A stretch of DNA of 64,000 nucleotides from Clostridia bacterium (GTDB lineage: Bacteria > Bacillota > Clostridia > Christensenellales > Aristaeellaceae). Position 1 is the first letter of the stretch; every line of letters starts with the position of its first letter. The notes under the pieces are model-generated. The model made no database searches. It saw only the letters and a list, made by a program, of their open reading frames with translations, and had not been told where the DNA came from. The position numbers were made by a program, and so were the translations under genes. Positions 3,207-58,823 of this stretch are shown one piece after another. The stretch is taken from positions 1,539-65,538 of the forward strand of contig JAFUHD010000292.1 in the NCBI GenBank assembly GCA_017469025.1. The letters are read 5' to 3'.

Positions 3207-3282
<76 letters not shown>

Positions 3283-3420: not shown

Positions 3421-4500
3421 TCAGATGGTTGTCGGAGGAAGCGTACTCTCAATGATAGGCGCTTCAGTTTCGGTCTGCGGGGCAGGTGTAGCTTCAGGCT
3501 GGGTAAAACCATATCCTTCGGTTGCTGTTCCAGGAACTTCCTCAACAATTTTCAGCTCAGGCGTCGGAACAGGGGTTGGGACTGGCGTTGCCTCAGCAGC
3601 AGCTTTTGCCTCTGCTTCTGCACGGGCTGCAGCCTCTGCGGCCTCTCTCATGCGCCGGGCCTCAAGGATCGCCGCCTCGGTAACCGGTGCACGTCCTGAT
3701 TCCGTTACGCCAAGCGCCTGCTGCATGATTTCATACGGACAGTCACTGCTCAGTTTGGTATCACGGTATTTACTTGAAGATGTATGACGTCCCTTGCGGA
3801 GTTCAACATGCGTATAATGGGATGTCTTTACATGGCGGATACCGTATTTGGCATAAGTCACATTGTTCTCATAACCGGCATAAATAGCCTTGCCGCCTTC
3901 CTCGCCGATAATATCTCCCGCTTTGATCTCCTGACCGCGCTTCACATTGATCTTCTGGCAGTGGAGATACAGAAGGGTAATATCATATTCCTCGTTATAA
4001 ATGCCGATGGTACCATTTTTGTCGCCGGCACGTGTTACGACGCCGTCCAGAATGGAATGAAGCTTGCTGCCTTTATAGCTGACAAAATCAATTCCCTCGT
4101 GAACACCTGAAAAACCGCTTTTACCGTTTTTCCCCTTAATACGCTCACAGTACTGGCCGTAGAGCAGTGCGGTTTCGCCGAAATCAGCACCATACAGTCT
4201 GATACGCATCGCATCCGTAATATCCATTACGATCGGTGCCACGGCAAGCGTGCCATTGCTGTCCTTGACAAAGTACTCTGCAGGTACTGCAGAAGAAAAT
4301 GGTGTAAGTGCATATTCTCCATGATTGTACGCATACACATTGTCATAGTATGAAACCTTGACGCTGCGTACATTTCTGTAGCTGTTGACAAACCAGCGGT
4401 ACGCCGTAGTGATCTTAAAGGTATCCTCTGATTCTGCAAAACATGTACAGACAATGCTTACAAGCAGAACTGCCAGAACAAAGATAACAGTCTTTTTCAT
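3421..4500 (-). CDS. Secreted M23/LytM-family peptidase with Ala/Glu/Pro/Thr-rich C-terminal tail
   Basis: The start is set at ATG 4500 (MKKTVIFVLAVLLVSIVC..., signal-peptide-like) with GGAGGG upstream. The HxxxD motif is present (VHEGIDF), and the YLHCQKINVKRGQEIKAGDIIGEEG block is typical of M23. The tail is low complexity (AEAAARAEAEAKAAAEATPVPTPVPTPE). Confidence 0.75.
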   Translation of the reverse strand: MKKTVIFVLAVLLVSIVCTCFAESEDTFKITTAYRWFVNSYRNVRSVKVSYYDNVYAYNHGEYALTPFSSAVPAEYFVKDSNGTLAVAPIVMDITDAMRIRLYGADFGETALLYGQYCERIKGKNGKSGFSGVHEGIDFVSYKGSKLHSILDGVVTRAGDKNGTIGIYNEEYDITLLYLHCQKINVKRGQEIKAGDIIGEEGGKAIYAGYENNVTYAKYGIRHVKTSHYTHVELRKGRHTSSSKYRDTKLSSDCPYEIMQQALGVTESGRAPVTEAAILEARRMREAAEAAARAEAEAKAAAEATPVPTPVPTPELKIVEEVPGTATEGYGFTQPEATPAPQTETEAPIIESTLPPTTI

Positions 4501-4756
4501 ATTCCCTCCGAAATAAAATCGGACATTGTCCAATTATCATACATGATAATATAAGCTGCCAGATAGATTATATCAAATCAGGCAAAAAACTCAAGCCTTC
4601 ATCAAGGATTTGCAAGGAAAATGGTAAAATTTACGGAAATGCTGAGTTTTGCGAAAGCTGTTTTTTCCAACATACAGTATTAAGATCTGGACTGGAGACG
4701 AAAACCATGAAAAATGATCATATCACCTCAAGGCGATTGACACCCCAACAGGGGAG

Positions 4757-4837
4757 ATGACCTGGCACTATGTGCTGGTTTGTCAAATAATGACAACTGC
4801 AATTGATACGGTGCAGAAAACACAACTGTGCCATTAA
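4757..4837 (+). repeat. Copy A of the ~85-nt structured dispersed repeat (orphan copy, no gene downstream on this strand)
   Basis: ATGACCTGGCACTATGTGCTGGTTTGTCAAATAATGACAACTGCAATTGATACGGTGCAGAAAACACAACTGTGCCATTAA aligns along its length with the copies at 15461, 18106 (rc), 18192 (rc) and 57786. Confidence 0.8.
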
Positions 4838-4928
4838 TGGATCCTTAAAACATCTTTACTGCCATCAGTGAAAACAGAGATGATTGTAAGCCAGTCGCAC
4901 TGAAAGGCGACTGGCTTATTCTCCTGGA

Positions 4929-5954
4929 TCAGGTATTATTGTTCACATTTTCTGAAGGATTAGCAGTGCTATTTTTTCCTTTTCCCTGCGGAAGTTTCAT
5001 TTCAAGCCGGTGGTGCCGTTTGTTTTCTGGAATCATCTTGAATGCATGATACTTGTTTTTGACACTCTTTACCTGTGACTCGCCTGCCTGTGATATCCGC
5101 TGGCTGACAACAATCTTCCCATTTGACCCTTTTTTGAAATGCATGTTTCCCTGAAGATAACCGTGACTGTGACAGCGGACAATTGCCTCATACTTTTCCT
5201 TGCCGGCATCAAACCATGGAACAGCAAAATTCGCCCTGCTGCCGCAGACCGGACAGTTGATCCGCGTTACACGGCTGTCACCGATCGCATCTGCATAATT
5301 GATGTATGAGGTTGGAAATGTCAGTATCTTCGCCAGTGCAATTCTTTTCTCTTTATCAAGGACTTCCAGAAGATGTGCGAATTTTTCTTCAGGAAGATCA
5401 TTGAGTTTTTCATTGATCAGCGGCAGAAGAAGATTGGTTGCCTCTGCATCATATACAGCCCGGTGTGCAGGAATTTCACTTTCAATGGACATCTCCGCAA
5501 GCGCAGAATGCAGATTGAACTGACGGCTTTCAGCACCATAAAACAGATATCCGAACAGCAGCTGCGCATCCAGCGGCGGATCAAACGGCATCTTTTCATG
5601 ATAAAATTCCGTATTCCGCTTGAGTACGGGAAAATCATCCCGTCCCCATGTCACAAGATGTGCGCCGTCCGCCCACTGGACAAACTCATGCCAGGCAGAA
5701 GGAAAACTGCAGCCATGATTCAGTTCTTCCTGTGTTATCCCTGTTACTTTCTGAATATGCTTATCAATCTGCCTGTATATCTTTGGATGGAGCAGACGGC
5801 TGAAAAAGGACTCTATATGTCCTTCTGCATCAATCCGGCAGGCACCAATTTCAATGATCTCATGAGGCAATTTTGGATTTGTATAATAAGTTCCCTGATT
5901 CCATTCAAGATCCAGTATTACAACAGGCTGATCATCTATGAGTCGGTTAAACAT
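4929..5954 (-). CDS. DEDDh 3'-5' exonuclease (DnaQ/KapD-like) fused to a C-terminal zinc-ribbon-like region
   Basis: Exo motifs are ILDLEWN (Exo I), VTWGRDDF (Exo II) and HRAVYDAEA (Exo III, DEDDh). The C-terminal part has CPVCG ... RCHSHG. The start overlaps the stop of the upstream HAD gene by 8 nt. Confidence 0.8.
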   Translation of the reverse strand: MFNRLIDDQPVVILDLEWNQGTYYTNPKLPHEIIEIGACRIDAEGHIESFFSRLLHPKIYRQIDKHIQKVTGITQEELNHGCSFPSAWHEFVQWADGAHLVTWGRDDFPVLKRNTEFYHEKMPFDPPLDAQLLFGYLFYGAESRQFNLHSALAEMSIESEIPAHRAVYDAEATNLLLPLINEKLNDLPEEKFAHLLEVLDKEKRIALAKILTFPTSYINYADAIGDSRVTRINCPVCGSRANFAVPWFDAGKEKYEAIVRCHSHGYLQGNMHFKKGSNGKIVVSQRISQAGESQVKSVKNKYHAFKMIPENKRHHRLEMKLPQGKGKNSTANPSENVNNNT

Positions 5955-8260: not shown

Positions 8261-8579
8261 CCCATCCTCCTAAATATTGTTGTGCTTTCGGCATCATATC
8301 AACTGCTGATGTTTTTTTTTTGACAAATTGGCACGAAGTGACGGGCAATTCAAGCATTTATACCACCGGCAGTTGTCCGGTATGCATTATATCGCCTGCA
8401 TCAGGCTGCACCATTCTAGCATTTCTTATTTAAGGAATCAATCTGCCGGGATAAAACTTGTGCTGTACTTCACCTGCAGGCTTTACATATTTCGGAAGAA
8501 TCATTGAATCCCTGTCCTGTCTGCCTGTTATATTGAAAGTATTTTTCAGCTGTTTTTCATGGTTATTTCAGCTGCTTTC

Positions 8580-8608
8580 TTGACAATACCAGGCTTTTTC
8601 TTCATAAT
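8580..8608 (+). promoter_or_regulatory. Candidate sigma-A promoter upstream of dnaN
   Basis: TTGACA (8580..8585), a 17-nt spacer and CATAAT (8603..8608). The DnaA boxes lie downstream, in the would-be leader. Confidence 0.45.
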
Positions 8609-8662
8609 AATCATGGCGTATTTCGCAGGTCAGATATCATTATCCTGCCAGCCCACAATTTT

Positions 8663-8774
8663 TGTGGATAAATTGTGGATTATTTTTGAGTTTTCCACGC
8701 TGTTTTCAGGAAGTTATCCACAGGCATTTTTCCTTGTATTTACGCTTTTCCCGGGTTTATCCACATTATCCACC
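8663..8774. promoter_or_regulatory. DnaA-box cluster 1 (oriC-like, upstream of dnaN)
   Basis: Perfect 9-mers: TGTGGATAA 8663..8671, TTATCCACA 8714..8722 and TTATCCACA 8757..8765. One-mismatch boxes: 8674..8682 (TGTGGATTA) and 8766..8774 (TTATCCACC). A weaker box lies at 8691..8699. The cluster is followed by CCCGAC and an AT-rich tract at 8779..8817. Confidence 0.8.
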
Positions 8775-8829
8775 CGACTAATACTTTTACTTCTATCTAT
8801 ATATACTACATCTACACATGGAGGATATT

Positions 8830-9921
8830 ATGCGCTTTACCTGTAATGCAGCAAAACTGAATGAAGCCCTCTCCATCGCCATACATGCCATCCCCGTCAA
8901 ATCTCCGAAGGCTGTACTCGAAGGAATCATGATTGAAGCACAGAATGATTCCATCATTCTGACAACAACGGATATGGCAATCGGCATTGAATGTAAAATC
9001 ATGGCTTATGTTGAAGAAACAGGCAGTGTTGTTCTGCCAGGCCGTTTCTTTTGTGAGATTGCCCGCAAGCTGCCAGGTGAGGATGTCCGTATTACTGTAA
9101 ATGACCGTAATGTAGCCAGCATTGTCAGCGGTCAGTTCAAAACAAGCCTTTCAGGTTCAGACGCCCTTGAATTTCCTGAACTGCCAATGGTTAAGGGACA
9201 GACAGCCAAGCTGACTCAAAAGCAGCTTAAGCGGCTGATTAATGGTACGCTTTTCTCCGTTGCTGTAGATGAGAGCCGTCCCATTCTGACAGGATGTCTT
9301 TTTGAAATTGATCATGATGAAATCAGCATTGTTGCACTTGACGGATATCGCCTTGCCATCTGCAAGGAAACCATAGAAGATTGCAATGAAACCATCTCAC
9401 AGGTAATCGGCGGTAAAATTCTTGGAGACATCGCTAAAATCGTCAATGACTCTGACAGCGAAGCCATTATCTGTTTCAGCAAAAGTCATGCCAGCATCAG
9501 GATTGATGAGAATATCATTATTGCCCGTCTTCTCGAAGGCGAATATATGCGTTACAAGCAGATTCTGCCGATGGATTATCTGACACGCATCAGAATTAAC
9601 CGGATGCAGCTGGCAGATGCCATCGACCGCGCCATGCTGATCGGACGTGAATCAAAGTCAAATCTGGTCAGCTTCAAGGTAGATGGAGATGTTATGACCA
9701 TTGTCATGCAGAATACCAGCATGGAAGAAAAAATCGGCATCAGCAGTGAAGGCAAGGAACTTGAAATTGCATTCAACATCAAGTATGTCATGGATGTACT
9801 GAAGGCCATTCCTGATGAAGAAATTGAGATGAGATTCAAATCTTCTGTCAGTCCGTGTCTCGTTTATCCGCCGGATGGCGGCAGCCAGTATCTGTATCTC
9901 CTTCTGCCTGTCCGTGTATAG
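8830..9921 (+). CDS. dnaN: DNA polymerase III beta sliding clamp
   Basis: The start is set at ATG 8830 (GGAGGA at 8820..8825). The product is 363 aa with the typical N-terminus MRFTCNAAKLNEALSIA...VLEGIMIEA, LTGCLFEI, and C-terminal PVRV. Confidence 0.93.
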   Translation: MRFTCNAAKLNEALSIAIHAIPVKSPKAVLEGIMIEAQNDSIILTTTDMAIGIECKIMAYVEETGSVVLPGRFFCEIARKLPGEDVRITVNDRNVASIVSGQFKTSLSGSDALEFPELPMVKGQTAKLTQKQLKRLINGTLFSVAVDESRPILTGCLFEIDHDEISIVALDGYRLAICKETIEDCNETISQVIGGKILGDIAKIVNDSDSEAIICFSKSHASIRIDENIIIARLLEGEYMRYKQILPMDYLTRIRINRMQLADAIDRAMLIGRESKSNLVSFKVDGDVMTIVMQNTSMEEKIGISSEGKELEIAFNIKYVMDVLKAIPDEEIEMRFKSSVSPCLVYPPDGGSQYLYLLLPVRV

Positions 9922-9956: not shown

Positions 9957-11060
9957 ATGAAAGTGAATACGCTCATCCTGAAGGATTTCCGGAATTATGA
10001 GGGCGTTGAAATACAGCCGGGCTCTGGGATGAATGTTTTCATCGGAAGCAACGCACAGGGAAAGACCAATATCATTGAAGCACTGCATCTTTGCGGTGTC
10101 GGCCGCAGTCACCGGACCAGCAAGGATGAGGAAATGATACGCTGGGAACAGCCGTTTGGACGGGTAACGGTCAGGAGCAGCCAGCAGGATGGAACACATG
10201 AGGTAACAATCATCCTGGCAAGGGGCCAGAAAAAGAAAAAGAACATCAAAATAGGGGAACGGAAAGCGGAACGTATCGGTGAACTTTTTGGTCATATTTG
10301 CGGTGTTCTGTTTTCTCCTGAAGATCTGCTTATCGTCAAAGGCGGACCGGCAGAACGAAGACGTTTTCTGGATATGCTTCTTTCCCAGCTGAGTTCGGTC
10401 TATTTTTATCATCTTCAGCGGTACAATAAGGCACTTTCCGAACGGAATGCTGTTTTGCGTGAGATTTCCATAAAACCCGGACTGCGCAGTACGCTGGATA
10501 TGTGGGACGAGATGCTTGCAGACAGTGGTGCCGCAGTTGCAGAGCGCAGAATTGAGGCAATTGAACATCTGTCAGCCCTCGCTGCATTGGAGCACAGGCA
10601 TCTGACCGGTGAAAAGGAAGAACTGACCCTTCGATATATGACATCGCTCAGGGATCCATCTGATCTCAGGCAGAAATTTCTTGACCAACTGTTTTCTGCA
10701 CGCGATGATGATATAAGACGGCAGACTACCGGATATGGTGTACACCGGGATGATATCAGTATCCGGATTAACAACAGGGAAACAAGAATATTCGGCTCCC
10801 AGGGACAGCAGCGCAGTGCAGTTCTGTCTCTCAAAATGGCTCAGCTGGCGTATATGGCAGAAAGCAAAGGGGAAAATCCGATTTTACTCCTTGATGATGT
10901 CATGAGTGAGCTGGATATGAACCGACGTCGTGCACTTGGTGAGCGGATCAATCAGATTCAGACATTTGTTACCTGTACTGACATTTCCGATCTCGGAGAG
11001 ACGGAACGGGGGATGCTGTATCAGGTAGATAAAGGCACACTGAATAGTTTTCCACAGTAA
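9957..11060 (+). CDS. recF: DNA replication/repair protein RecF
   Basis: The start is set at ATG 9957 (AAGAGGA upstream). Walker A is GSNAQGKTNIIEA, the signature is GSQGQQRS and Walker B is ILLLDDVMSELD. The product is 367 aa. Confidence 0.93.
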   Translation: MKVNTLILKDFRNYEGVEIQPGSGMNVFIGSNAQGKTNIIEALHLCGVGRSHRTSKDEEMIRWEQPFGRVTVRSSQQDGTHEVTIILARGQKKKKNIKIGERKAERIGELFGHICGVLFSPEDLLIVKGGPAERRRFLDMLLSQLSSVYFYHLQRYNKALSERNAVLREISIKPGLRSTLDMWDEMLADSGAAVAERRIEAIEHLSALAALEHRHLTGEKEELTLRYMTSLRDPSDLRQKFLDQLFSARDDDIRRQTTGYGVHRDDISIRINNRETRIFGSQGQQRSAVLSLKMAQLAYMAESKGENPILLLDDVMSELDMNRRRALGERINQIQTFVTCTDISDLGETERGMLYQVDKGTLNSFPQ

Positions 11061-11133
11061 TCCACAATTTATCCACAGAGTTTTCAGGTTTTCCACATTT
11101 CCTGTGGAAAACTAAGAAAAATGATGTGGAAAA
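11048..11133. promoter_or_regulatory. DnaA-box cluster 2 (overlaps the recF 3' end and downstream spacer)
   Basis: Six boxes lie within 86 nt: TTTTCCACA 11048..11056, TAATCCACA 11058..11066, TTATCCACA 11069..11077, TTTTCCACA 11089..11097, TGTGGAAAA 11103..11111 and TGTGGAAAA 11125..11133. Most fit TTWTNCACA. Confidence 0.75.
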
Positions 11134-11268
11134 CGTGCGGAAAAGGCGAAAAACTGAGTATGGCCGTGATATTCAAAATCAGGCATATATAATAGGAAGA
11201 AAAAGCCTGTTCAGGAAGTCTGGCAATATGGGATTTCTGTGTGCATTTCAAAAAAGTGGAAAAGTTCA

Positions 11269-15100: not shown

Positions 15101-15331
15101 ATGGATAATATTGCACACTTTCTTCATTATTCCCTGGATAAGAAAAGGAAAATCGTTCTGATCTATCTGGATGACCAGAACCGGGTGGTCAGAAAAAATG
15201 CGTCTGTAACCGCACTCAGCGATGCGGCTGCAGAGGTAATCATTGGCAGAAAGAAAATGATACTGCCAAGAGAGTCACTGCTTGGTGCAGGGTATGCGCG
15301 AGGGGACAGTGGTGACCTTGAGAAGGCATGA
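15101..15331 (+). CDS. Small hypothetical protein (76 aa)
   Basis: The ORF lies immediately after the stop of the membrane protein gene. No motif was recognised and the SD is weak. Confidence 0.35.
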   Translation: MDNIAHFLHYSLDKKRKIVLIYLDDQNRVVRKNASVTALSDAAAEVIIGRKKMILPRESLLGAGYARGDSGDLEKA

Positions 15332-15361
15332 TATAGGGATACTGACCTGCGTATATGGTTA

Positions 15362-15543
15362 TTTTGTTGTCAAAAGCTTAAGCTGTACCATTAAGAGATG
15401 GCCTGCTGTGCGGTACCGGGCTGTCAGAAAATGATATGATGCTGAAAGCTTAAAGAGTAGATGGCCCAGCACTTCGTGCTGGTTTGTCAAATAATGACAT
15501 CTGCGATTGATACGGTGCCAAAAGCACGACTATGTCATTAAAA
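15362..15543 (+). repeat. Tandem array of the structured repeat upstream of kduI: two decayed copies plus full copy B (15461..15543)
   Basis: Copy B is ATGGCCCAGCACTTCGTGCTGGTTTGTCAAATAATGACATCTGCGATTGATACGGTGCCAAAAGCACGACTATGTCATTAAA, followed directly by AGGAGG and the kduI ATG. Segments 15398..15457 and 15362..15396 are internally deleted versions. Confidence 0.8.
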
Positions 15544-15557
15544 GGAGGAATTTAGAA

Positions 15558-16394
15558 ATGAAACTAACTGTCCGTCAGCCCTCTGCATCGCTCGATGCAA
15601 AGCACTATACCACTGAGCGTCTGCGCAGTGAGTATCTGATTGAAACTGTTTTTGAACCGGATGAGGCTGTATTTACCTATTCCCATTTTGACAGAATCAT
15701 CGCAGGCGGTGTAATGCCGGTAAACAAGACGGTTGCACTTGTTGGCTGCAAGGAACTGGCAAGCGAAACATTCCTTGAGCGCCGCGAGATGGGCGTTATC
15801 AATATCGGCGGAAAAGGCCGCATCCGCGTGGATGAGAATACGTATGATCTCAAACAGTATGACGGGCTGTACGTCGGCATGGGCGCGAAAGTCATTGAAC
15901 TTAGCAGTGAAGACGCTTCAAATCCTGCAAAGTTTTATATCAATACCTGCCCGGCACACAAGACATATCCAAATGTCCTGATTGACATTGACAAGGCAAA
16001 CAAAAGGCCGCTCGGCTCACCGGAAACCTGCAATAAGCGCGTGATTAACCAGTACATCCATCCCGCTGTTATGCAGAGCTGTCAGCTGTGCATGGGTATG
16101 ACCCAGCTGGCACCGGGAAGCAACTGGAATTCAATGCCATGCCATACGCATGAGCGCCGTATGGAAGTCTATTTCTATTTTGAACTCAAGGACAACAATA
16201 TTGTGTTCCACATGATGGGTGAACCGAAAGAGACGCGTCACATCATCATGCACAATGAACAGGCAGTTATCTCTCCGTCCTGGTCAATTCACACCGGTGT
16301 TGGTACCAGCAACTATACCTTTATCTGGGGTATGTGCGGTGAAAATCAGGATTTTGATGACATGGATAACTTAGATCCTATGGATCTGTTATAA
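15558..16394 (+). CDS. kduI: 5-dehydro-4-deoxy-D-glucuronate isomerase (4-deoxy-L-threo-5-hexosulose-uronate ketol-isomerase)
   Basis: Start ATG 15558 with AGGAGG upstream. The product is 278 aa and carries the cupin metal motif region [13 protein letters not shown] and SPSWSIHTG. Confidence 0.9.
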
Positions 16395-16431
16395 GGAGAC
16401 CCTTTGACTTTGCAATGTGGAGGAAAAAGAC

Positions 16432-17235
16432 ATGAACGAGTTTATGAAGAATTTTTCTCTTGAGGGCAAGGTAGCCCTTGTAACCGGTGCATCTTATGGT
16501 ATCGGTTTTGCGATTGCAACAGCACTTTCTGATGCAGGTGCAACCATTGTGTTTAACGACATCAAGCAGGAACTGGTAGACAAGGGACTGGCTGCCTATG
16601 CTGAGAAGGGCATCAAGGCTTATGGTTATGTCTGCGATGTTACCAATGAGACCCAGGTTACCGAAATGGTTGCCAAGATTCGTGAGGATGTAGGCATCGT
16701 TGATATTCTTGTCAACAATGCCGGTATCATCAAGCGCATTCCCATGATTGAGATGAGTGCAGAAGATTTCCGCAAGGTTATTGATGTTGATCTTAATGCA
16801 CCGTTCATCGTATCCAAGGCCTGCATCCCCGGCATGATTGAAAAAGGTCATGGCAAGATTATTAATATCTGCTCCATGATGTCCGAACTGGGTCGTGAGA
16901 CAGTTTCTGCTTATGCGGCAGCCAAAGGCGGCCTCAAGATGCTGACCAGGAATATCTGCTCTGAGTATGGCGAAGCCAATATTCAGTGCAATGGCATTGG
17001 ACCTGGCTATATCGAGACGCCTCAGACAGCGCCGCTTCGTGAGCGTCAGCCGGACGGCAGCCGTCATCCGTTCGATCAGTTTATCGTATCCAAGACACCT
17101 GCTGCCCGCTGGGGAACAACTGAAGATCTTAAGGGACCGGCAGTATTCCTGGCATCCGATGCTTCAAACTTCGTCAACGGCCATATTCTGTATGTCGATG
17201 GCGGTATTCTTGCTTATATCGGAAAACAGCCGTAA
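16432..17235 (+). CDS. kduD: SDR-family 2-dehydro-3-deoxy-D-gluconate 5-dehydrogenase / gluconate 5-dehydrogenase
   Basis: Start ATG 16432 with GGAGGA upstream. It has TGASYGIG (NAD(P) binding), NNAG and the YAAAK (YxxxK) catalytic motif. Its position next to kduI supports the KduD assignment. Confidence 0.8.
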   Translation: MNEFMKNFSLEGKVALVTGASYGIGFAIATALSDAGATIVFNDIKQELVDKGLAAYAEKGIKAYGYVCDVTNETQVTEMVAKIREDVGIVDILVNNAGIIKRIPMIEMSAEDFRKVIDVDLNAPFIVSKACIPGMIEKGHGKIINICSMMSELGRETVSAYAAAKGGLKMLTRNICSEYGEANIQCNGIGPGYIETPQTAPLRERQPDGSRHPFDQFIVSKTPAARWGTTEDLKGPAVFLASDASNFVNGHILYVDGGILAYIGKQP

Positions 17236-17249
17236 TAGTAAATAAAAAA

Positions 17250-17275
17250 AGGACTGCTGCAGCTGCAGCAGTCCT
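17250..17275. terminator. Bidirectional intrinsic terminator between kduD and the convergent M55 peptidase gene
   Basis: Palindrome AGGACTGCTGCA GC TGCAGCAGTCCT, flanked by A7 on the 5' side and TGTATTTT on the 3' side. Confidence 0.8.
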
Positions 17276-17281
17276 TGTATT

Positions 17282-18094
17282 TTACAGACAGAACATGAAG
17301 AAACGAAGAACGTCATAGTAAGCATCCGAAGAGAAGCGTACAGAGCGGGGACCGGTCTGACGGACGCCCGGATAGAATGAAGCACGGCGTGCCTTGTTGT
17401 GCTGTACGAAGGATACCTCTACATCAAACTTGTTTGGCAGACTGACTGCAAAACGCTCAGGATGGGCAATGCCTTCTTCGAATGCGGTTTTTGCTGTTTC
17501 CTGAATACGCTTAAGCGCAACATTCGGATGAATCGAGATGGAGCCGTTTCCGCGTCCCTGGGAAACCGGCACGGTAAAAATATTCGGAGAAATCCGTTTT
17601 GCCTGCTCACAGACGCCAAGGTCTCCCGTGATCATAAGTACGGGTACATCGTACAGTGCCGCTGCATAGAGGTTGATCAGCATTTCACTGGTCTGGATAC
17701 CGTTGATTGTAATGGAGATGTTCTGCGTATTCATGGTATGGGACAGGGGATTGGTATCCGTATTTGAAGAAGAATGATACCCTGTAAAAAATGCACCGGT
17801 GAAACTTCCATCAATACCGGACATCATGGAGTGAATATCGCTGCCCCAGCCGCGGAAAATTTGAATCTGTTCAGGCAGCATTTCCGGCATCAGATTTCGT
17901 GCACTGTCATGTGCATCCTTGATGAGTATATCCTCTGCACCGGACTCGAGTGCGCCAAGACAGGCTGCATTGACCTCACGGGTCATCTGCTGACGGAAAG
18001 GCGTATAGTCAGGTTTTCCAAGTTCGGTTTCATCCCAGTGTGCAATGCCGCATGTACCTTCGATGTCGGCAGAAATAAAAAGACGATGAAGCAT
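17282..18094 (-). CDS. M55 family metallopeptidase (D-aminopeptidase DppA-like)
   Basis: N-terminus MLHRLFISADIEGTCGIAHWDE, followed by ILIKDAHDS and TGYHS blocks typical of peptidase M55. Confidence 0.85.
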   Translation of the reverse strand: MLHRLFISADIEGTCGIAHWDETELGKPDYTPFRQQMTREVNAACLGALESGAEDILIKDAHDSARNLMPEMLPEQIQIFRGWGSDIHSMMSGIDGSFTGAFFTGYHSSSNTDTNPLSHTMNTQNISITINGIQTSEMLINLYAAALYDVPVLMITGDLGVCEQAKRISPNIFTVPVSQGRGNGSISIHPNVALKRIQETAKTAFEEGIAHPERFAVSLPNKFDVEVSFVQHNKARRASFYPGVRQTGPRSVRFSSDAYYDVLRFFMFCL

Positions 18095-18105
18095 AGAGTT
18101 TCTCC

Positions 18106-18270
18106 TTTAATGACATAGTCGTGTTTTCGGCACCGTATCAATCGCAGTTGTCATGATTTGACAAACCAGCATGAAATGCTGGGCCATTTTCTTTAATGAC
18201 ATAGTCGTGCTTTCAGCATCGTATCAATAGCAGATGCCATTGTTGGACAGACCAGCATGAAGTGCTGGCC
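18106..18270 (-). repeat. Two tandem full copies (C 18106..18187, D 18192..18270) of the structured repeat in the 5' leader of the M55 peptidase gene
   Basis: The reverse complement of C is ATGGCCCAGCATTTCATGCTGGTTTGTCAAATCATGACAACTGCGATTGATACGGTGCCGAAAACACGACTATGTCATTAAA, followed by GGAGA and the ATG at 18094. D is a diverged copy directly upstream. Confidence 0.85.
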
Positions 18271-18392
18271 TGATAACATGGCTGTGCCATATCATTCAAT
18301 AATCAGGCTTTTGTCTTCGGACAGGTGCCTTTAAGCACAGGTGGTAAAATGGCATTCAGGCTGTGTATGCCGCAGAAAAGGCTGTTTTCAGA

Positions 18393-19100
18393 TCAGGCTA
18401 TTTCGAGTGCAATTTCCATCATCTGGGTAAATGTATTCTGACGGTCTTCTGCAGGAAGCGATTCACCCCTGAAGATATGATCTGAGATGGTGCAGATTGC
18501 CAGTGCCTGCTTTCCGGCTCTGGCAGCATTCAGGTACAGTCCGGCTGCTTCCATTTCTGTTGCCAGAACGCCCAGGTTTTTGAGCTTTGCTGAACTGCCG
18601 GTTTCATCATAAAAGATGTCTGAAGAATAGAGGGCGCCTATCTTCGGATCAATTCCCAGATGCTTTGCAGCCTCGTAGGCTTTCATCAGCAGATCGAAGG
18701 AACAGCAGGGAGCAAGATTGCCGTCAAAGCCGAACTGGCGGCCAAAGCAGGAATTGGTGTAGGCACTCATGCCAAATACGATATCACGAAGCTTGATATC
18801 ATCGCCGATACCGCCTGCTGAACCGATACGGATGATATTCTCAACATTGTAAAAATTATAAAGTTCATATGAATAGATGCCGATGGATGGAATACCCATT
18901 CCGGATGCCATGACAGATACTCTTTTTCCTTTGTATGTGCCGGTGTATCCCTGAACACCGCGTACATTGTTTACCAGTTCTGCGTTTTCAAGATAGTGTT
19001 CAGCGATAAATTTGCTGCGCAGTGGATCTCCGGGCATAAGAACAGTACGGGCAAATGCGCCTTCTTTTGCAGTAATATGCGGCGTTGGAACTTTAGCCAT
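18393..19100 (-). CDS. deoD: Purine nucleoside phosphorylase, DeoD type
   Basis: 235 aa. Motifs include TPHI, VLMPGDPLR, SVMASGMGIPSIGIYSYEL and ATEMEAAGLY. Confidence 0.92.
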   Translation of the reverse strand: MAKVPTPHITAKEGAFARTVLMPGDPLRSKFIAEHYLENAELVNNVRGVQGYTGTYKGKRVSVMASGMGIPSIGIYSYELYNFYNVENIIRIGSAGGIGDDIKLRDIVFGMSAYTNSCFGRQFGFDGNLAPCCSFDLLMKAYEAAKHLGIDPKIGALYSSDIFYDETGSSAKLKNLGVLATEMEAAGLYLNAARAGKQALAICTISDHIFRGESLPAEDRQNTFTQMMEIALEIA

Positions 19101-53193: not shown

Positions 53194-54798
53194 ATGAGAC
53201 TGACAATAGACGGACTTGGAAGTCCGGAATGGGCAGAAAAAGGAATTCATCTGCCTGAATTCGATATTGGAAAAGTCAGAGAGCGTACCTGTGAACATCC
53301 TGTGTGGGTACACTTTGGCGTGGGAAACATCTTCCGCATTTTTAACGGAGGCATCGCAGACCGACTGATTGAAGCCGGTGAACTGGACCGTGGTATCACC
53401 TGTGTGGAAACATTTGATTTTGAGGTGATTGACCGCGTGTACCGTCCACATGATAATCTGGCACTGGCGGTTACGCTGTATGGAGACGGTACCACGGATA
53501 AACGGGTCATCGGATCTCTCAGCGAGGCAGTTGCCATGCGTCCCCATGATCACGCGGCGAGGGAACGTCTGTGGACGATTTTTACAGATCCGGGTCTTCA
53601 AATGGTGTCCTTTACCATTACAGAGAAAGGATATGCCCTGAAAAACGCGTCAGGCGCTTATTTTGACTTTGTAAGGGCGGATATTGAGCAGGGACCTGCT
53701 ACTGTAACCAGTGCTGTTTCGCTGGTGGTTTCCCTGCTTCTTGACCGCTATCTGGCGGGCGGCGCCAGCCTTGCACTGGTTTCCATGGACAATGTATCGC
53801 ACAATGGTGAAAAACTGCGTAATGCCGTTATTGAAATTGCGGAGGCGTGGCAGGACAGGGGCTATTGTCAGGAAGGGTTCCTTGCGTATATACGGGATGA
53901 ATCCCGGATTGCATTTCCATGGACAATGATTGACAAAATTACGCCGAGACCGAGCGAGAGCACACAGGCACTGCTGACAGATCTCGGTGTATCGGATATG
54001 GATATCGTCATAACGGACAAAAAGACGTATATCGCTCCGTTCGTCAATGCAGAAGGTCCCCAGTATCTGGTTGTGGAGGATCATTTTCCAAACGGCCGGC
54101 CGGCATTTGATAAAGCTGGCGTGTATCTGTGCAGCCGGGATACGGTCAATGCAGCCGAACGGATGAAAGTGACTGTCTGTCTGAATCCGCTCCATACGGC
54201 GCTGGCACCGTATGGCTGTATACTGGGGTATACCCGTTTTTCGGATGTTATGCAGGATCCGGAAATGCAGCTGCTGGTCCACAGGGTTGCAGATGAAGGT
54301 ATGAAAGTGGTCCATGATCCGGGAATTCTGTCTCCGAAAGCGTTTATTGACGAATGTATCAATGTCCGTTTTCCAAATCCGTACATTCCCGATACACCGC
54401 AGCGTATAGCAGTAGATACATCCCAGATGGTTGGCATCCGGTTTGGCGAAACCATTAAGGAATATGTAACTGCACAGGGAAGTGCTGCATGTCTGTCCGG
54501 AATTCCGCTGGCAATAGCCGGATGGTTCCGTTATCTGCTGGGCAGGGATGAGTCGGGGAATGCATTTGAACTTTCTCCGGATCCCATGAATGCGGAACTT
54601 CAGTCAGCGCTTGCGGGTATTGAGATCGGCAGACCTGAAACGTATCAGGGACAGCTGAAACCCTTCCTGCACAATAAGAGTATCTTTGGCAGTGATCTGT
54701 ATGAAGCCGGAATCGGTGAAAAGATCGAAACCATGTTCTGCGAGGAAATTGCAGAGTTTGGTGCTGTCCGCGCAGTCATCCGGAAATATCTGGCATAA
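53194..54798 (+). CDS. Mannitol dehydrogenase family oxidoreductase (fructuronate/tagaturonate reductase-like)
   Basis: The start is set at ATG 53194 (GGGAGGAAG upstream). It has the N-terminal Rossmann motif VHFGVGNIFR. The 534-aa length and pattern are typical of the UxuB/UxaB family. Confidence 0.75.
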   Translation: MRLTIDGLGSPEWAEKGIHLPEFDIGKVRERTCEHPVWVHFGVGNIFRIFNGGIADRLIEAGELDRGITCVETFDFEVIDRVYRPHDNLALAVTLYGDGTTDKRVIGSLSEAVAMRPHDHAARERLWTIFTDPGLQMVSFTITEKGYALKNASGAYFDFVRADIEQGPATVTSAVSLVVSLLLDRYLAGGASLALVSMDNVSHNGEKLRNAVIEIAEAWQDRGYCQEGFLAYIRDESRIAFPWTMIDKITPRPSESTQALLTDLGVSDMDIVITDKKTYIAPFVNAEGPQYLVVEDHFPNGRPAFDKAGVYLCSRDTVNAAERMKVTVCLNPLHTALAPYGCILGYTRFSDVMQDPEMQLLVHRVADEGMKVVHDPGILSPKAFIDECINVRFPNPYIPDTPQRIAVDTSQMVGIRFGETIKEYVTAQGSAACLSGIPLAIAGWFRYLLGRDESGNAFELSPDPMNAELQSALAGIEIGRPETYQGQLKPFLHNKSIFGSDLYEAGIGEKIETMFCEEIAEFGAVRAVIRKYLA

Positions 54799-54855
54799 AT
54801 AACCGGGGACGGCATTGCCGTTCCCAAAAACCGGTATATAAACTGGTATAAAAAA

Positions 54856-54880
54856 GCAGGGACGGCATTGCCGTTCCTGC
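54856..54880 (-). terminator. Intrinsic terminator of the HTH-HisKA-REC gene
   Basis: GCAGGGACGGCA-T-TGCCGTTCCTGC, followed on the minus strand by TTTTTTAT. A second copy of the 19-20 nt core lies at 54806..54825. Confidence 0.65.
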
Positions 54881-57699: not shown

Positions 57700-57785
57700 A
57701 ATGATCTAAGTGCTGTTTTGACATGGATTCAGACAGAAAATGCAGGGGATTCATCTGGAAAGGAAGAGACTCTGACAGAAGATTG

Positions 57786-57860
57786 TCAGGCACATTGTGC
57801 TGTTTTGTCAAACAACGACATTGATGGATACAGTGCCGAAAGCAAAGCTGTGTTATCAAA
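57786..57860 (+). repeat. Copy E (diverged) of the structured repeat, directly 5' of the panE-like SD
   Basis: TCAGGCACATTGTGCTGTTTTGTCAAACAACGACATTGATGGATACAGTGCCGAAAGCAAAGCTGTGTTATCAAA is followed by GGAAGG and ATG 57873. A decayed partial copy lies at about 57709..57745. Confidence 0.7.
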
Positions 57861-57872
57861 GGAAGGAAACCC

Positions 57873-58823
57873 ATGACGAATGAACGGAAAATATGTGTTG
57901 CCGGCATTGGCGGTGTCGGCGGGCTGCTGGCCGCAATGCTCGGAAAGGTATATGGCGGTCAACTGACGCTTGTGGCACGTGGACACCGGGCAGAGATGCT
58001 GAGGGAGAATGGACTGGTCCTGCACAGCGAGTTCTATGGTGAAGTTCGCGCGAGGCCGCAGCGAATCTGCGAAGACCCTGCGGATATCGGAGTAAAGGAT
58101 ATTATTTTTGTGTGCGTTAAGAACTATTCGCTTGAACAGATTGCAGAGACGATCCGTCCTGCGGTGGATGAGCATACTGTCATAGTTCCGGTGCTTAACG
58201 GTGTTGAAGCGGGAAACCGTATGCGTGCACTGTTTCCGGAGGCAGTTGTCGGAGATGCGGTTATCTATACCATCTCTGGAGCCAATCCGGATGGATCCGT
58301 GACACAGTCCGGCAGCTATACCCATCTGTTTCTCGGCAGCAAAATGCCGGACAGACGGTTTCAGGAAGGCGTGCACATGGCGTATGATCTTCTTGTGCCT
58401 ACCGGATTTGATGTCCGCTGGTCCCAGAATATCGAGAGCGAAATATGGCAGAAATTTATACTGAACTGCGCATTCAATATTACAACGGCACGTCATCAGA
58501 CGACAACCGGCGTGATCCGTGAGAATGAGCAGATGCGGGCGGATCTGCACGCGCTCCTGTCCGAGGCATATCAGGCCGGTATGGCTGAGGGGATTGACCT
58601 GCCGCCGGATCTTGTTGAAACCAAGTACAGTTATGTGATCAACAATCAGCCGCCGAACGGAACCAGCTCCATGAAGCGGGATGTGGATGCCGGTCGTCCG
58701 ATTGAGCTGGATGCCTTTACGGGGACTGTAATCCGTCTGGCTGAAAAACATGGGTTTGATGTACCGGTAATCCGGGCATACCATGAAGCCCTTGAACGGA
58801 TGGTAAGTGCCTATTCCCATTAA
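57873..58823 (+). CDS. 2-dehydropantoate 2-reductase (ketopantoate reductase, PanE/ApbA family)
   Basis: The N-terminal Rossmann motif is ICVAGIGGVGG. It also has an ApbA_C-like region (SSMKRDVDAGRPIELDAF). Confidence 0.8.
   Translation: MTNERKICVAGIGGVGGLLAAMLGKVYGGQLTLVARGHRAEMLRENGLVLHSEFYGEVRARPQRICEDPADIGVKDIIFVCVKNYSLEQIAETIRPAVDEHTVIVPVLNGVEAGNRMRALFPEAVVGDAVIYTISGANPDGSVTQSGSYTHLFLGSKMPDRRFQEGVHMAYDLLVPTGFDVRWSQNIESEIWQKFILNCAFNITTARHQTTTGVIRENEQMRADLHALLSEAYQAGMAEGIDLPPDLVETKYSYVINNQPPNGTSSMKRDVDAGRPIELDAFTGTVIRLAEKHGFDVPVIRAYHEALERMVSAYSH

Follow-up and report, generated by a model that had tools for sequence, protein, structure and literature searches.

A previously undescribed repeat of about 86 nt before gene starts in a Clostridia bacterium, best read as a small mobile DNA element

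Results

A repeat family with defined ends and a specific flank

We analyzed a 64,000-nt stretch of DNA from a ruminant-gut Clostridia bacterium (GenBank assembly GCA_017469025.1, contig JAFUHD010000292.1, positions 1,539 to 65,538; in the following 'the window') for a repeat of about 86 nt that stands directly upstream of several genes and had been proposed, in an original prediction made from the sequence, to be a structured element of 5' leaders. The repeat family is real and previously undescribed. Most plausibly it is a new addition to a known class, the small mobile repeats at gene starts, and its link to the Shine-Dalgarno motif is unusually clear; it is not a new riboswitch-like RNA. 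Probably it is a small non-autonomous mobile DNA repeat, directional and without terminal inverted repeats. What we observed is a repeat family with defined unit boundaries, a motif at its flank, empty orthologous sites, arrays of non-sister units and no counterpart in Rfam. The prediction had listed a MITE-like mobile element (MITE, miniature inverted-repeat transposable element) among its options, and this option fits the empty sites in syntenic relatives, the non-sister arrays and the specific flank motif.

The window contains six full copies of the repeat (A, X, K, B, C and D) and one weak remnant, K0 (Table 1), that is, six copies in 64 kb. An unbiased repeat search linked the five reported copies at 83-91% identity over 77-88 nt, and a core pattern, TGTCNAA-N(11-19)-GATAYRRTGCNRAAARCA, matched the window six times, exactly at the six copies, where shuffled sequences lead one to expect 0.00 matches. 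A covariance model likewise gave six full matches of 66-108 bits (E 5e-22 to 1e-12). All five copies that had been reported are present; copy X, which lies before the Shine-Dalgarno (SD) site and ATG of the TrmO gene, had been missed. This diverged sixth copy was flagged by the unbiased repeat search and then upheld by alignment. K0 is a further addition and a weak one, its local alignment score corresponding to the 95th percentile of random windows; it was the only candidate to reach even weak support when we looked for further degenerate units upstream of copies K and C. The copies had been called near-identical, which does not hold, as pairwise identity within the window is only 58-89%.

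Other contigs contributed 14 more full units and two truncated or partial copies, and the alignment comprises 20 full units from the window and these contigs. Scanning a genome collection revealed at least two true loci (L003 and L006), along with four chance matches, among the matches listed. L003 belongs to the Clostridia metagenome-assembled genome (MAG) RGIG4336 and L006 to the Lachnospiraceae MAG RGIG5021, both from roe-deer gut, and each carries two units joined head to tail, with GTCATTAAAGGAG followed directly by ATGGCCCAGCA. As one frame stays open over the whole unit, we also searched a protein collection with its concatenated translations and obtained seven 'hypothetical proteins', whose contigs (L024-L030) supplied further copies. 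To judge by the accession numbers MBQ8094706, MBQ8094124 (locus tag IJ242_11190) and MBQ8094793 (IJ242_14655), the window seems to share one MAG with the NCBI contigs of two of these proteins, P0121 (ENA counterpart of the contig, L024) and P0125, and several further copy-bearing contigs derive from the same sample. In L003, L006, L024, L027 and L033 copies are found at contig ends, as is to be expected of multi-copy repeats, which break assemblies.

The unit begins with ATGGCCCAGCA and ends with GTCATTAAAGGAG/AAAGGAG, so that the SD core forms its last five bases. A core of about 80 nt, ATGGCCCAGCA...GTCATTAA, lies between 5-nt direct repeats (R)GGAG, and the copy-to-copy period is about 86 nt. 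Some units stand alone, and others form head-to-tail arrays with 2 to at least 3.3 members. At the tandem junctions in L003, L006, L024, L026, L027 and L030, CATTAAAGGAG abuts ATGGCCC, and the window's own tandem junction shows the decayed form CATTAAAGAAA abutting ATGGCCC. From these head-to-tail junctions it follows that AGGAG is the 3' end of the repeat unit and that the SD is part of the unit, and not, as predicted, a site 3-4 nt beyond it. Inspection of the alignment by eye showed no terminal inverted repeat between the left end, ATGGCCCAGCAC, and the right end, which as its reverse complement reads (CTCCT)TTAATGACATAG.

Of 12 independent insertions, seven have a left flank of exactly GGAG (binomial P = 5e-15) and three more have a flank that is one base off (GGAT, GGTG and GAAG). 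Orphan copies have the GGAG left flank too, which indicates that the motif, not the gene, is targeted. Most copies carry (R)GGAG on both sides; the orphans A and L027:1403-1488 have it on the left only. Fourteen independent loci could be compared. At eight of them the unit stands in sense orientation directly before a start codon, and the distance from the unit's GGAG to the host ATG is 6-10 nt in seven of these eight, the exception being copy D, which ends with GGAAGG five bases from the ATG. For these eight loci the prediction of a gene-linked element always in sense orientation stood. It does not extend to the five orphans, two of which are antisense to both neighbouring genes. The genes downstream of the window copies encode TrmO, KduI, an M55 peptidase and a PanE/ApbA-like reductase and are, as had been stated, mutually unrelated.

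Empty sites in relatives and arrays of non-sister units

Eight syntenic loci of relatives allowed us to compare sites with and without the repeat. The M55 protein of L016-L021 is 79% identical to that of the window, and those of L022 and L023 are 87% and 88% identical, respectively. Synteny of L016-L021 with the window at 7.5-21 kb includes PNP, M55, SDR, KduI, a small ORF (open reading frame), a 640-aa ORF, RecF, DnaN and TrmO. The window has 298 nt between PNP and M55, where L016-L021 have only 15 nt and L022 and L023 have unrelated sequence of 79-85 nt; upstream of kduI it has 226 nt, compared to 59-61 nt in the relatives. Neither nhmmer nor the covariance model found a copy anywhere in the 4-21 kb loci of L016-L023.

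Tandem neighbours are 79% (B and C), 86% (L003a and b), 87% (L026a and b) and 87% (L030a and b) identical to each other. Copies at unrelated loci are closer: L006a and L026b share 99%, L006 being part of another species' MAG, and copy B shares 97% with L026b. Since array neighbours are less alike than copies at unrelated loci, the arrays result from separate insertions and not from local duplication. Copy B belongs to a young subfamily (it is also 95% identical to L006a), while copy C, in the intercistronic gap from PNP_UDP_1 to M55, has lost its 5' ATG and had its 3' AGGAG mutated to AGAAA.

Beside some of these copies we noticed genes of other kinds. The tandem pair of L006 (L006:3229-4292) has on one side an HTH/zinc-ribbon ORF and an ORF with a SHOCT-like tail, and on the other the start of a serine-recombinase-like gene (MKKINILEP...RVAAYARVS), all identified by eye from the translated ORFs. 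Such neighbours hint at a mobile island by which the repeat could pass from one species to another, on a contig of 4.3 kb for which mis-binning is possible. Contig L027 starts with an array of at least 3.3 units (L027:1-390), and the small ORF that comes next, MKDPEIRKEHIEEGPEKQEELAQEDLKKVSGG continuing with VPLL..., looks like a bacteriocin-like double-glycine leader peptide.

A small insertion of a different kind was seen among strains of a GC-rich relative that have the same M55 protein as one another, where L011-L015 differ from L010 by an indel of about 83 nt upstream of M55 (e.g. L011:9828-10001). It is bounded by GGGGC(GC)AAAGCC direct repeats and shows presence/absence polymorphism. 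We considered it as a possible copy of the repeat family and rejected it, as it is a different, GC-rich repeat unrelated to the one described here.

RNA structure of the repeat

A functional cis-acting RNA module in 5' leaders (a stabiliser, a processing site or a protein platform), selected for its fold and spread only secondarily, is an unlikely explanation of the family. It would agree with the sense copies directly before start codons at eight of the 14 loci, and SD-like sites together with a 5' hairpin are known to stabilise Gram-positive mRNAs (STAB-SD, PMC4113751). Moreover, hairpin 1 (CCAGCAC-NNN-GTGCTGG; 7 bp, 5 nt from the unit's 5' end) is 94% paired across the 20 copies, and nowhere does the unit vary more than in the loop and the closing pair of this hairpin. 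This hairpin is maintained, which could equally reflect a recognition structure at the DNA level.

Ten copies close hairpin 1 with C-G, five with U-A and two with U-G, and three have a mismatch at this pair. The compensatory change from C:G to U:A on which the original prediction relied exists, but it had been assigned to the wrong copies: CCAGCAC/GTGCTGG is found in copy K and CCAGCAT/ATGCTGG in copy B, while copy C combines CCAGCAC with ATGCTGG and thus has a C.A mismatch. All five U-A copies fall into one subfamily and therefore represent one event, with both kinds of intermediate present. The claimed covariation support is thereby reduced to essentially one inherited event at a single pair, accompanied by C.A and C-U mismatches. 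It had also been argued that G-U pairs are valid on the sense RNA only. At the same closing pair this argument fails, as two copies have U-G and two have C.A, the latter being a wobble pair on the opposite strand. Taking the 20 copies together, 86% of the cells are paired and the covariation score was matched by only 3 of 500 shuffles, which speaks for a selected fold; however, the score comes mainly from one pair, and for related sequences the tool itself quotes a range of false positives that includes the shuffle figure.

Each copy had been predicted to fold into three structures, of which only hairpin 1 is robust. Pairing in the long stem amounts to 79%, with end pairs that at least half of the copies lack, and the stem competes with a TTGTC/GACAA hairpin; in copy D it does contain the predicted G-U pairs, but two mismatches as well. 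The small 3' hairpin consists of a 4-bp GTGC/GCAC stem (87% paired). In the 3' half RNAalifold chose yet another, third pairing (covariation term +0.35), and the minimum-free-energy folds differ from copy to copy, their z-scores ranging from +0.35 to -3.5. Only hairpin 1 thus supports the label 'structured RNA'. The five orphan loci, with their two antisense copies, and the orthologous leaders of relatives that do without the element likewise argue against a functional RNA module.

Searching Rfam with the whole window at the gathering threshold returned only the tRNA at 3210-3282, and a permissive scan of 15300-18450 (E <= 10) aligned nothing to a unit as such. The sole overlap is a sub-threshold chance match to CLRN1-AS1 at 15393-15476 (16.2 bits, gathering threshold 48), which clips the first 16 nt of copy K. 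The prediction that the repeat matches no named RNA family was thus borne out. We rejected a riboswitch or attenuator in view of the unrelated downstream genes, the orphans, the antisense copies and the inconsistent folds. We also considered the palindrome TTGTCA-N5-TGACAA as an operator and rejected it, as it is broken in the L024, L026 and L030 copies. No promoter-like site of the sigma-70 type was called inside units K, B and C. Copy X contains, at 8273-8302 on the minus strand, the sequence TTGATA-18-AATATT (9/12 match), which was made by its own substitutions and illustrates how a decaying unit could evolve a promoter.

The mini-ORF within the unit

The unit can be read as an ORF of 26 codons, from an ATG at its first base to a TAA that overlaps AAAGGAG. 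It is still less probable that the family represents a translated mini-gene or upstream ORF whose stop abuts the SD and which passes ribosomes on to the host gene through translational coupling, a role that MIRUs (mycobacterial interspersed repetitive units) have been proposed to play. The exact extent of the ORF, its intactness in 12 of the 20 copies and the in-frame deletion of 3 nt in copy D are what such a gene would show. However, variable columns are spread evenly over codon positions 1, 2 and 3 (12/13/13, with 13/16/15 extra states), and 1-nt indels break the frame in 4 of the 20 copies (C, X, L003a and L006b). The sole SD before the mini-ORF abuts its ATG at zero spacing (GGAG directly followed by ATG), and such spacing is unfavourable for initiation. 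The TAA lies 11-17 nt before the host ATG in copies K, B and L024p, without the -4 overlap of stop and start. All seven database proteins that matched the peptide (P0121-P0127, e.g. MBQ8094124.1 and MBR1812727.1; 79-97 aa) are artefact ORFs that read from flanking DNA into the repeat and stop at its TAA. We rejected a protein-coding mini-gene because of the missing codon-position signal and the frameshifts; judged from these sequence features, the mini-ORF is probably untranslated.

A non-mobile minisatellite or leader that multiplied through local tandem duplication and through gene conversion among paralogous leaders would account for the head-to-tail arrays, but it is very improbable given that array neighbours are less alike than copies at unrelated loci, flanking genes are unrelated, solo copies are sharp-ended with a specific flank motif and syntenic relatives have empty sites.

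Table 1. Copies of the repeat in the 64-kb window and the sites associated with them (bits, score of the covariance model)
Feature	Position	Strand	Bits	Description
Copy A	4757..4842	+	92.3	orphan, antisense between two minus-strand genes; left flank 4752-4756 = GGGAG; 3' end decayed to CATTAATGGAT, hence without SD
M23 peptidase gene	3421-4533	-		neighbour of copy A
RNase_T gene	4929-5954	-		neighbour of copy A
Copy X	8266..8349	-	65.9	diverged, 58-67% identical to other copies
AGGAGG in copy X	8271-8266	-		SD for TrmO gene, start codon 8260
K0	15398..15460	+	16.7 (E 0.11)	possible degenerate unit directly 5' of copy K; begins ATGGCC, includes TGATATGATGCTGAAAGC
Copy K	15461..15547	+	108.3	full unit ending AAAAGGAG; followed by G, a 10-nt spacer and the kduI ATG at 15558
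Copy B	18102..18187	-	107.7	gene-proximal, promoter-distal unit of tandem pair
GGAG in copy B	18105-18102	-		SD for M55 peptidase gene, ATG 18094
Copy C	18188..18273	-	89.9	older upstream unit of tandem pair, 79% identical to B
Copy D	57782..57866	+	68.1	diverged, 3-nt deletion; left flank AGAAG; ends AAAGGAAGG ahead of PanE/ApbA-like ATG at 57873

Other features of the window

Several features of the window lie outside the repeat family. DnaA boxes (TTATCCACA, at most 1 mismatch) form two clusters, at 8663-8774 (five boxes, in the region 8560-8810) and 11048-11133 (six boxes, in the region 11040-11140), which flank dnaN (8818-9921) and a recF-like gene, and the GC skew changes its sign at about 8-10 kb. 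The region is probably a bipartite oriC, though a dnaA gene does not adjoin it; copy X is located about 300 nt from this putative origin. At 54790-54877, just past a gene ending at 54798, two direct repeats of 35 nt (CTGGYATAAA...GGGACGGCATTGCCGTTCC; 89% identical, 53 nt apart) may be a duplicated terminator-like hairpin. The window further contains two tandem HSP20 (alpha-crystallin) genes at 5-779, and the tRNA gene detected by Rfam is on the minus strand.

Discussion

A mobile repeat of the kind we favour would integrate in one orientation at AGGAG sites. As intergenic AGGAG would mostly be an SD, most of the tolerated copies would end up in sense orientation immediately before a start codon. 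Each unit would bring a fresh AGGAG at its 3' end, so that the host gene would keep an SD at a working distance of 5-10 nt, and the regenerated AGGAG could become the target of the next insertion, which would give rise to head-to-tail arrays. The units would be co-transcribed as leader or intercistronic RNA. PNP and M55 as well as the genes upstream of kduI and panE are co-oriented with the genes that follow, and copy X lies downstream of a promoter-like TTGATT-17-TAGAAT (8441-8413). Hairpin 1 may serve as the handle for the mobilising enzyme; our favoured guess would be an HUH/Y1-type transposase that acts on single-strand DNA, like those of IS200/IS605 and REP elements, and an IS110-type site-specific recombinase would be an alternative. 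The effect on expression would be near-neutral by design, with extra SD-like sites and an mRNA-stabilising 5' hairpin as possible side effects.

A more far-reaching proposal, which we consider possible but rather doubtful, is that of a transposable element that targets the SD core AGGAG itself and restores an SD at its own 3' end, a 'ribosome-binding-site parasite'. Such an element would be moved by a single-strand-DNA or guide-directed recombinase recognising AGGAG, would form arrays and would add STAB-SD-like sites. To our knowledge no SD-targeting transposon has been described, and the literature we searched held nothing of that kind.

Several observations weigh against the reading as a mobile repeat. 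Two MAGs and the samples from which they came were the only places where the family turned up. Pattern scans, run twice on JGI metagenomes and with four patterns on viral contigs, including left-end-only and right-end-only ones aimed at an autonomous parent, gave 0 matches, and blastn against plasmids and phages found no match. No transposase or recombinase Pfam domain (Y1_Tnp included) occurs in any of the about 40 window ORFs scanned, and none was called in the extra loci. By inspection, the bases 5' of the hairpin showed no evident IS608-style complementarity to the cleavage site. Contigs of the same species (L007-L009 and L031-L033) carry identical insertions, without presence/absence polymorphism among them, and the 99% match between MAGs could stem from mis-binning of the 4.3-kb contig L006. 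Finally, the orphans A and L027:1403-1488 end with CATTAAT and have no right-hand AGGAG, which is awkward for an element-borne AGGAG and at the same time constitutes evidence against a plain target-site duplication. Insertion beside a recognised motif, perhaps as in HUH/Y1 single-strand transposition, would suit these two ends better.

If AGGAG targeting holds true, the repeat would be a clear case of a selfish element that limits its harm by replacing a translation signal, which parallels MIRUs at start codons. In practical terms, the repeat accounts for spurious small ORFs, for broken assemblies of ruminant-gut MAGs and for long leaders before housekeeping genes, and its arrays could serve as strain markers for uncultured rumen Clostridia in the manner of variable-number tandem repeats. 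For RNA discovery it is a caution, as a hairpin repeat before many genes can mimic a new RNA family.

Several known systems resemble the repeat in part. Classical MITEs (Correia, RUP, ERIC and BOX) are, like it, short, non-coding, multi-copy and intergenic, and they are often co-transcribed with neighbouring genes and able to alter expression, as the repeat may be. Classical MITEs are, however, defined by terminal inverted repeats and by the target-site duplications of DDE transposases; the repeat is strictly directional, and its lack of terminal inverted repeats means that it does not belong to them.

The IS200/IS605-derived non-autonomous PATEs and the REP/REPIN elements, which HUH Y1 transposases move, are similar in that terminal inverted repeats are absent, a subterminal hairpin is present, insertion is oriented and occurs beside a short motif, evidence speaks against simple target duplication and copy number is high in one lineage. 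The repeat shows the corresponding 5' hairpin (7 bp, 94% paired) and the GGAG flank (7 of 12 insertions), whereas its right-end hairpin has only 4 bp, no cognate TnpA or RAYT was found among the window ORFs scanned, and the guide complementarity known from IS608 is not evident. Nor is there a clear replication-direction bias (3 loci with, 2 against), and REPs, unlike the repeat, usually lie 3' of genes.

Neisseria REP2 and the Borrelia IR repeats (IR-A/IR-B) contain a ribosome-binding site and internal stem-loops and have no terminal inverted repeats (PMC3184786). Our repeat too carries a ribosome-binding site and has no terminal inverted repeats. REP2 differs in its size of 120-150 bp and its promoter, while no convincing sigma-70 promoter was found in the repeat unit; in addition, REP2 is tied to a co-regulated gene set, and no such tie is visible for the repeat. 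The tandem arrays and the defined flank motif of the repeat, on the other hand, are not described for REP2.

MIRUs come closest in logic to the repeat and, with REP2, are its nearest analogues. They are described as short sense units, single or in tandem, that lie inside operons with filled and empty sites and short direct-repeat flanks, and that insert at start codons with host expression preserved (PMC3184786; PMC12548453). The two families differ in several respects: no sequence relationship exists, MIRUs belong to Actinobacteria and the repeat to Clostridia, MIRUs are said to have imperfect terminal inverted repeats, of which we saw none, and MIRU insertion at start codons is described as giving an ORF overlap of -4, whereas in the repeat the SD core AGGAG forms the junction, and what the unit provides is an SD and not a coupled stop-start. 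What they share is a length of 40-100 bp, single or head-to-tail units in sense orientation inside transcription units, empty sites and short flanking direct repeats. In the repeat this is seen as sense arrays or solo copies before eight genes, with PNP and M55 co-oriented, as is the gene upstream of kduI with kduI, and with the corresponding sites of the relatives empty.

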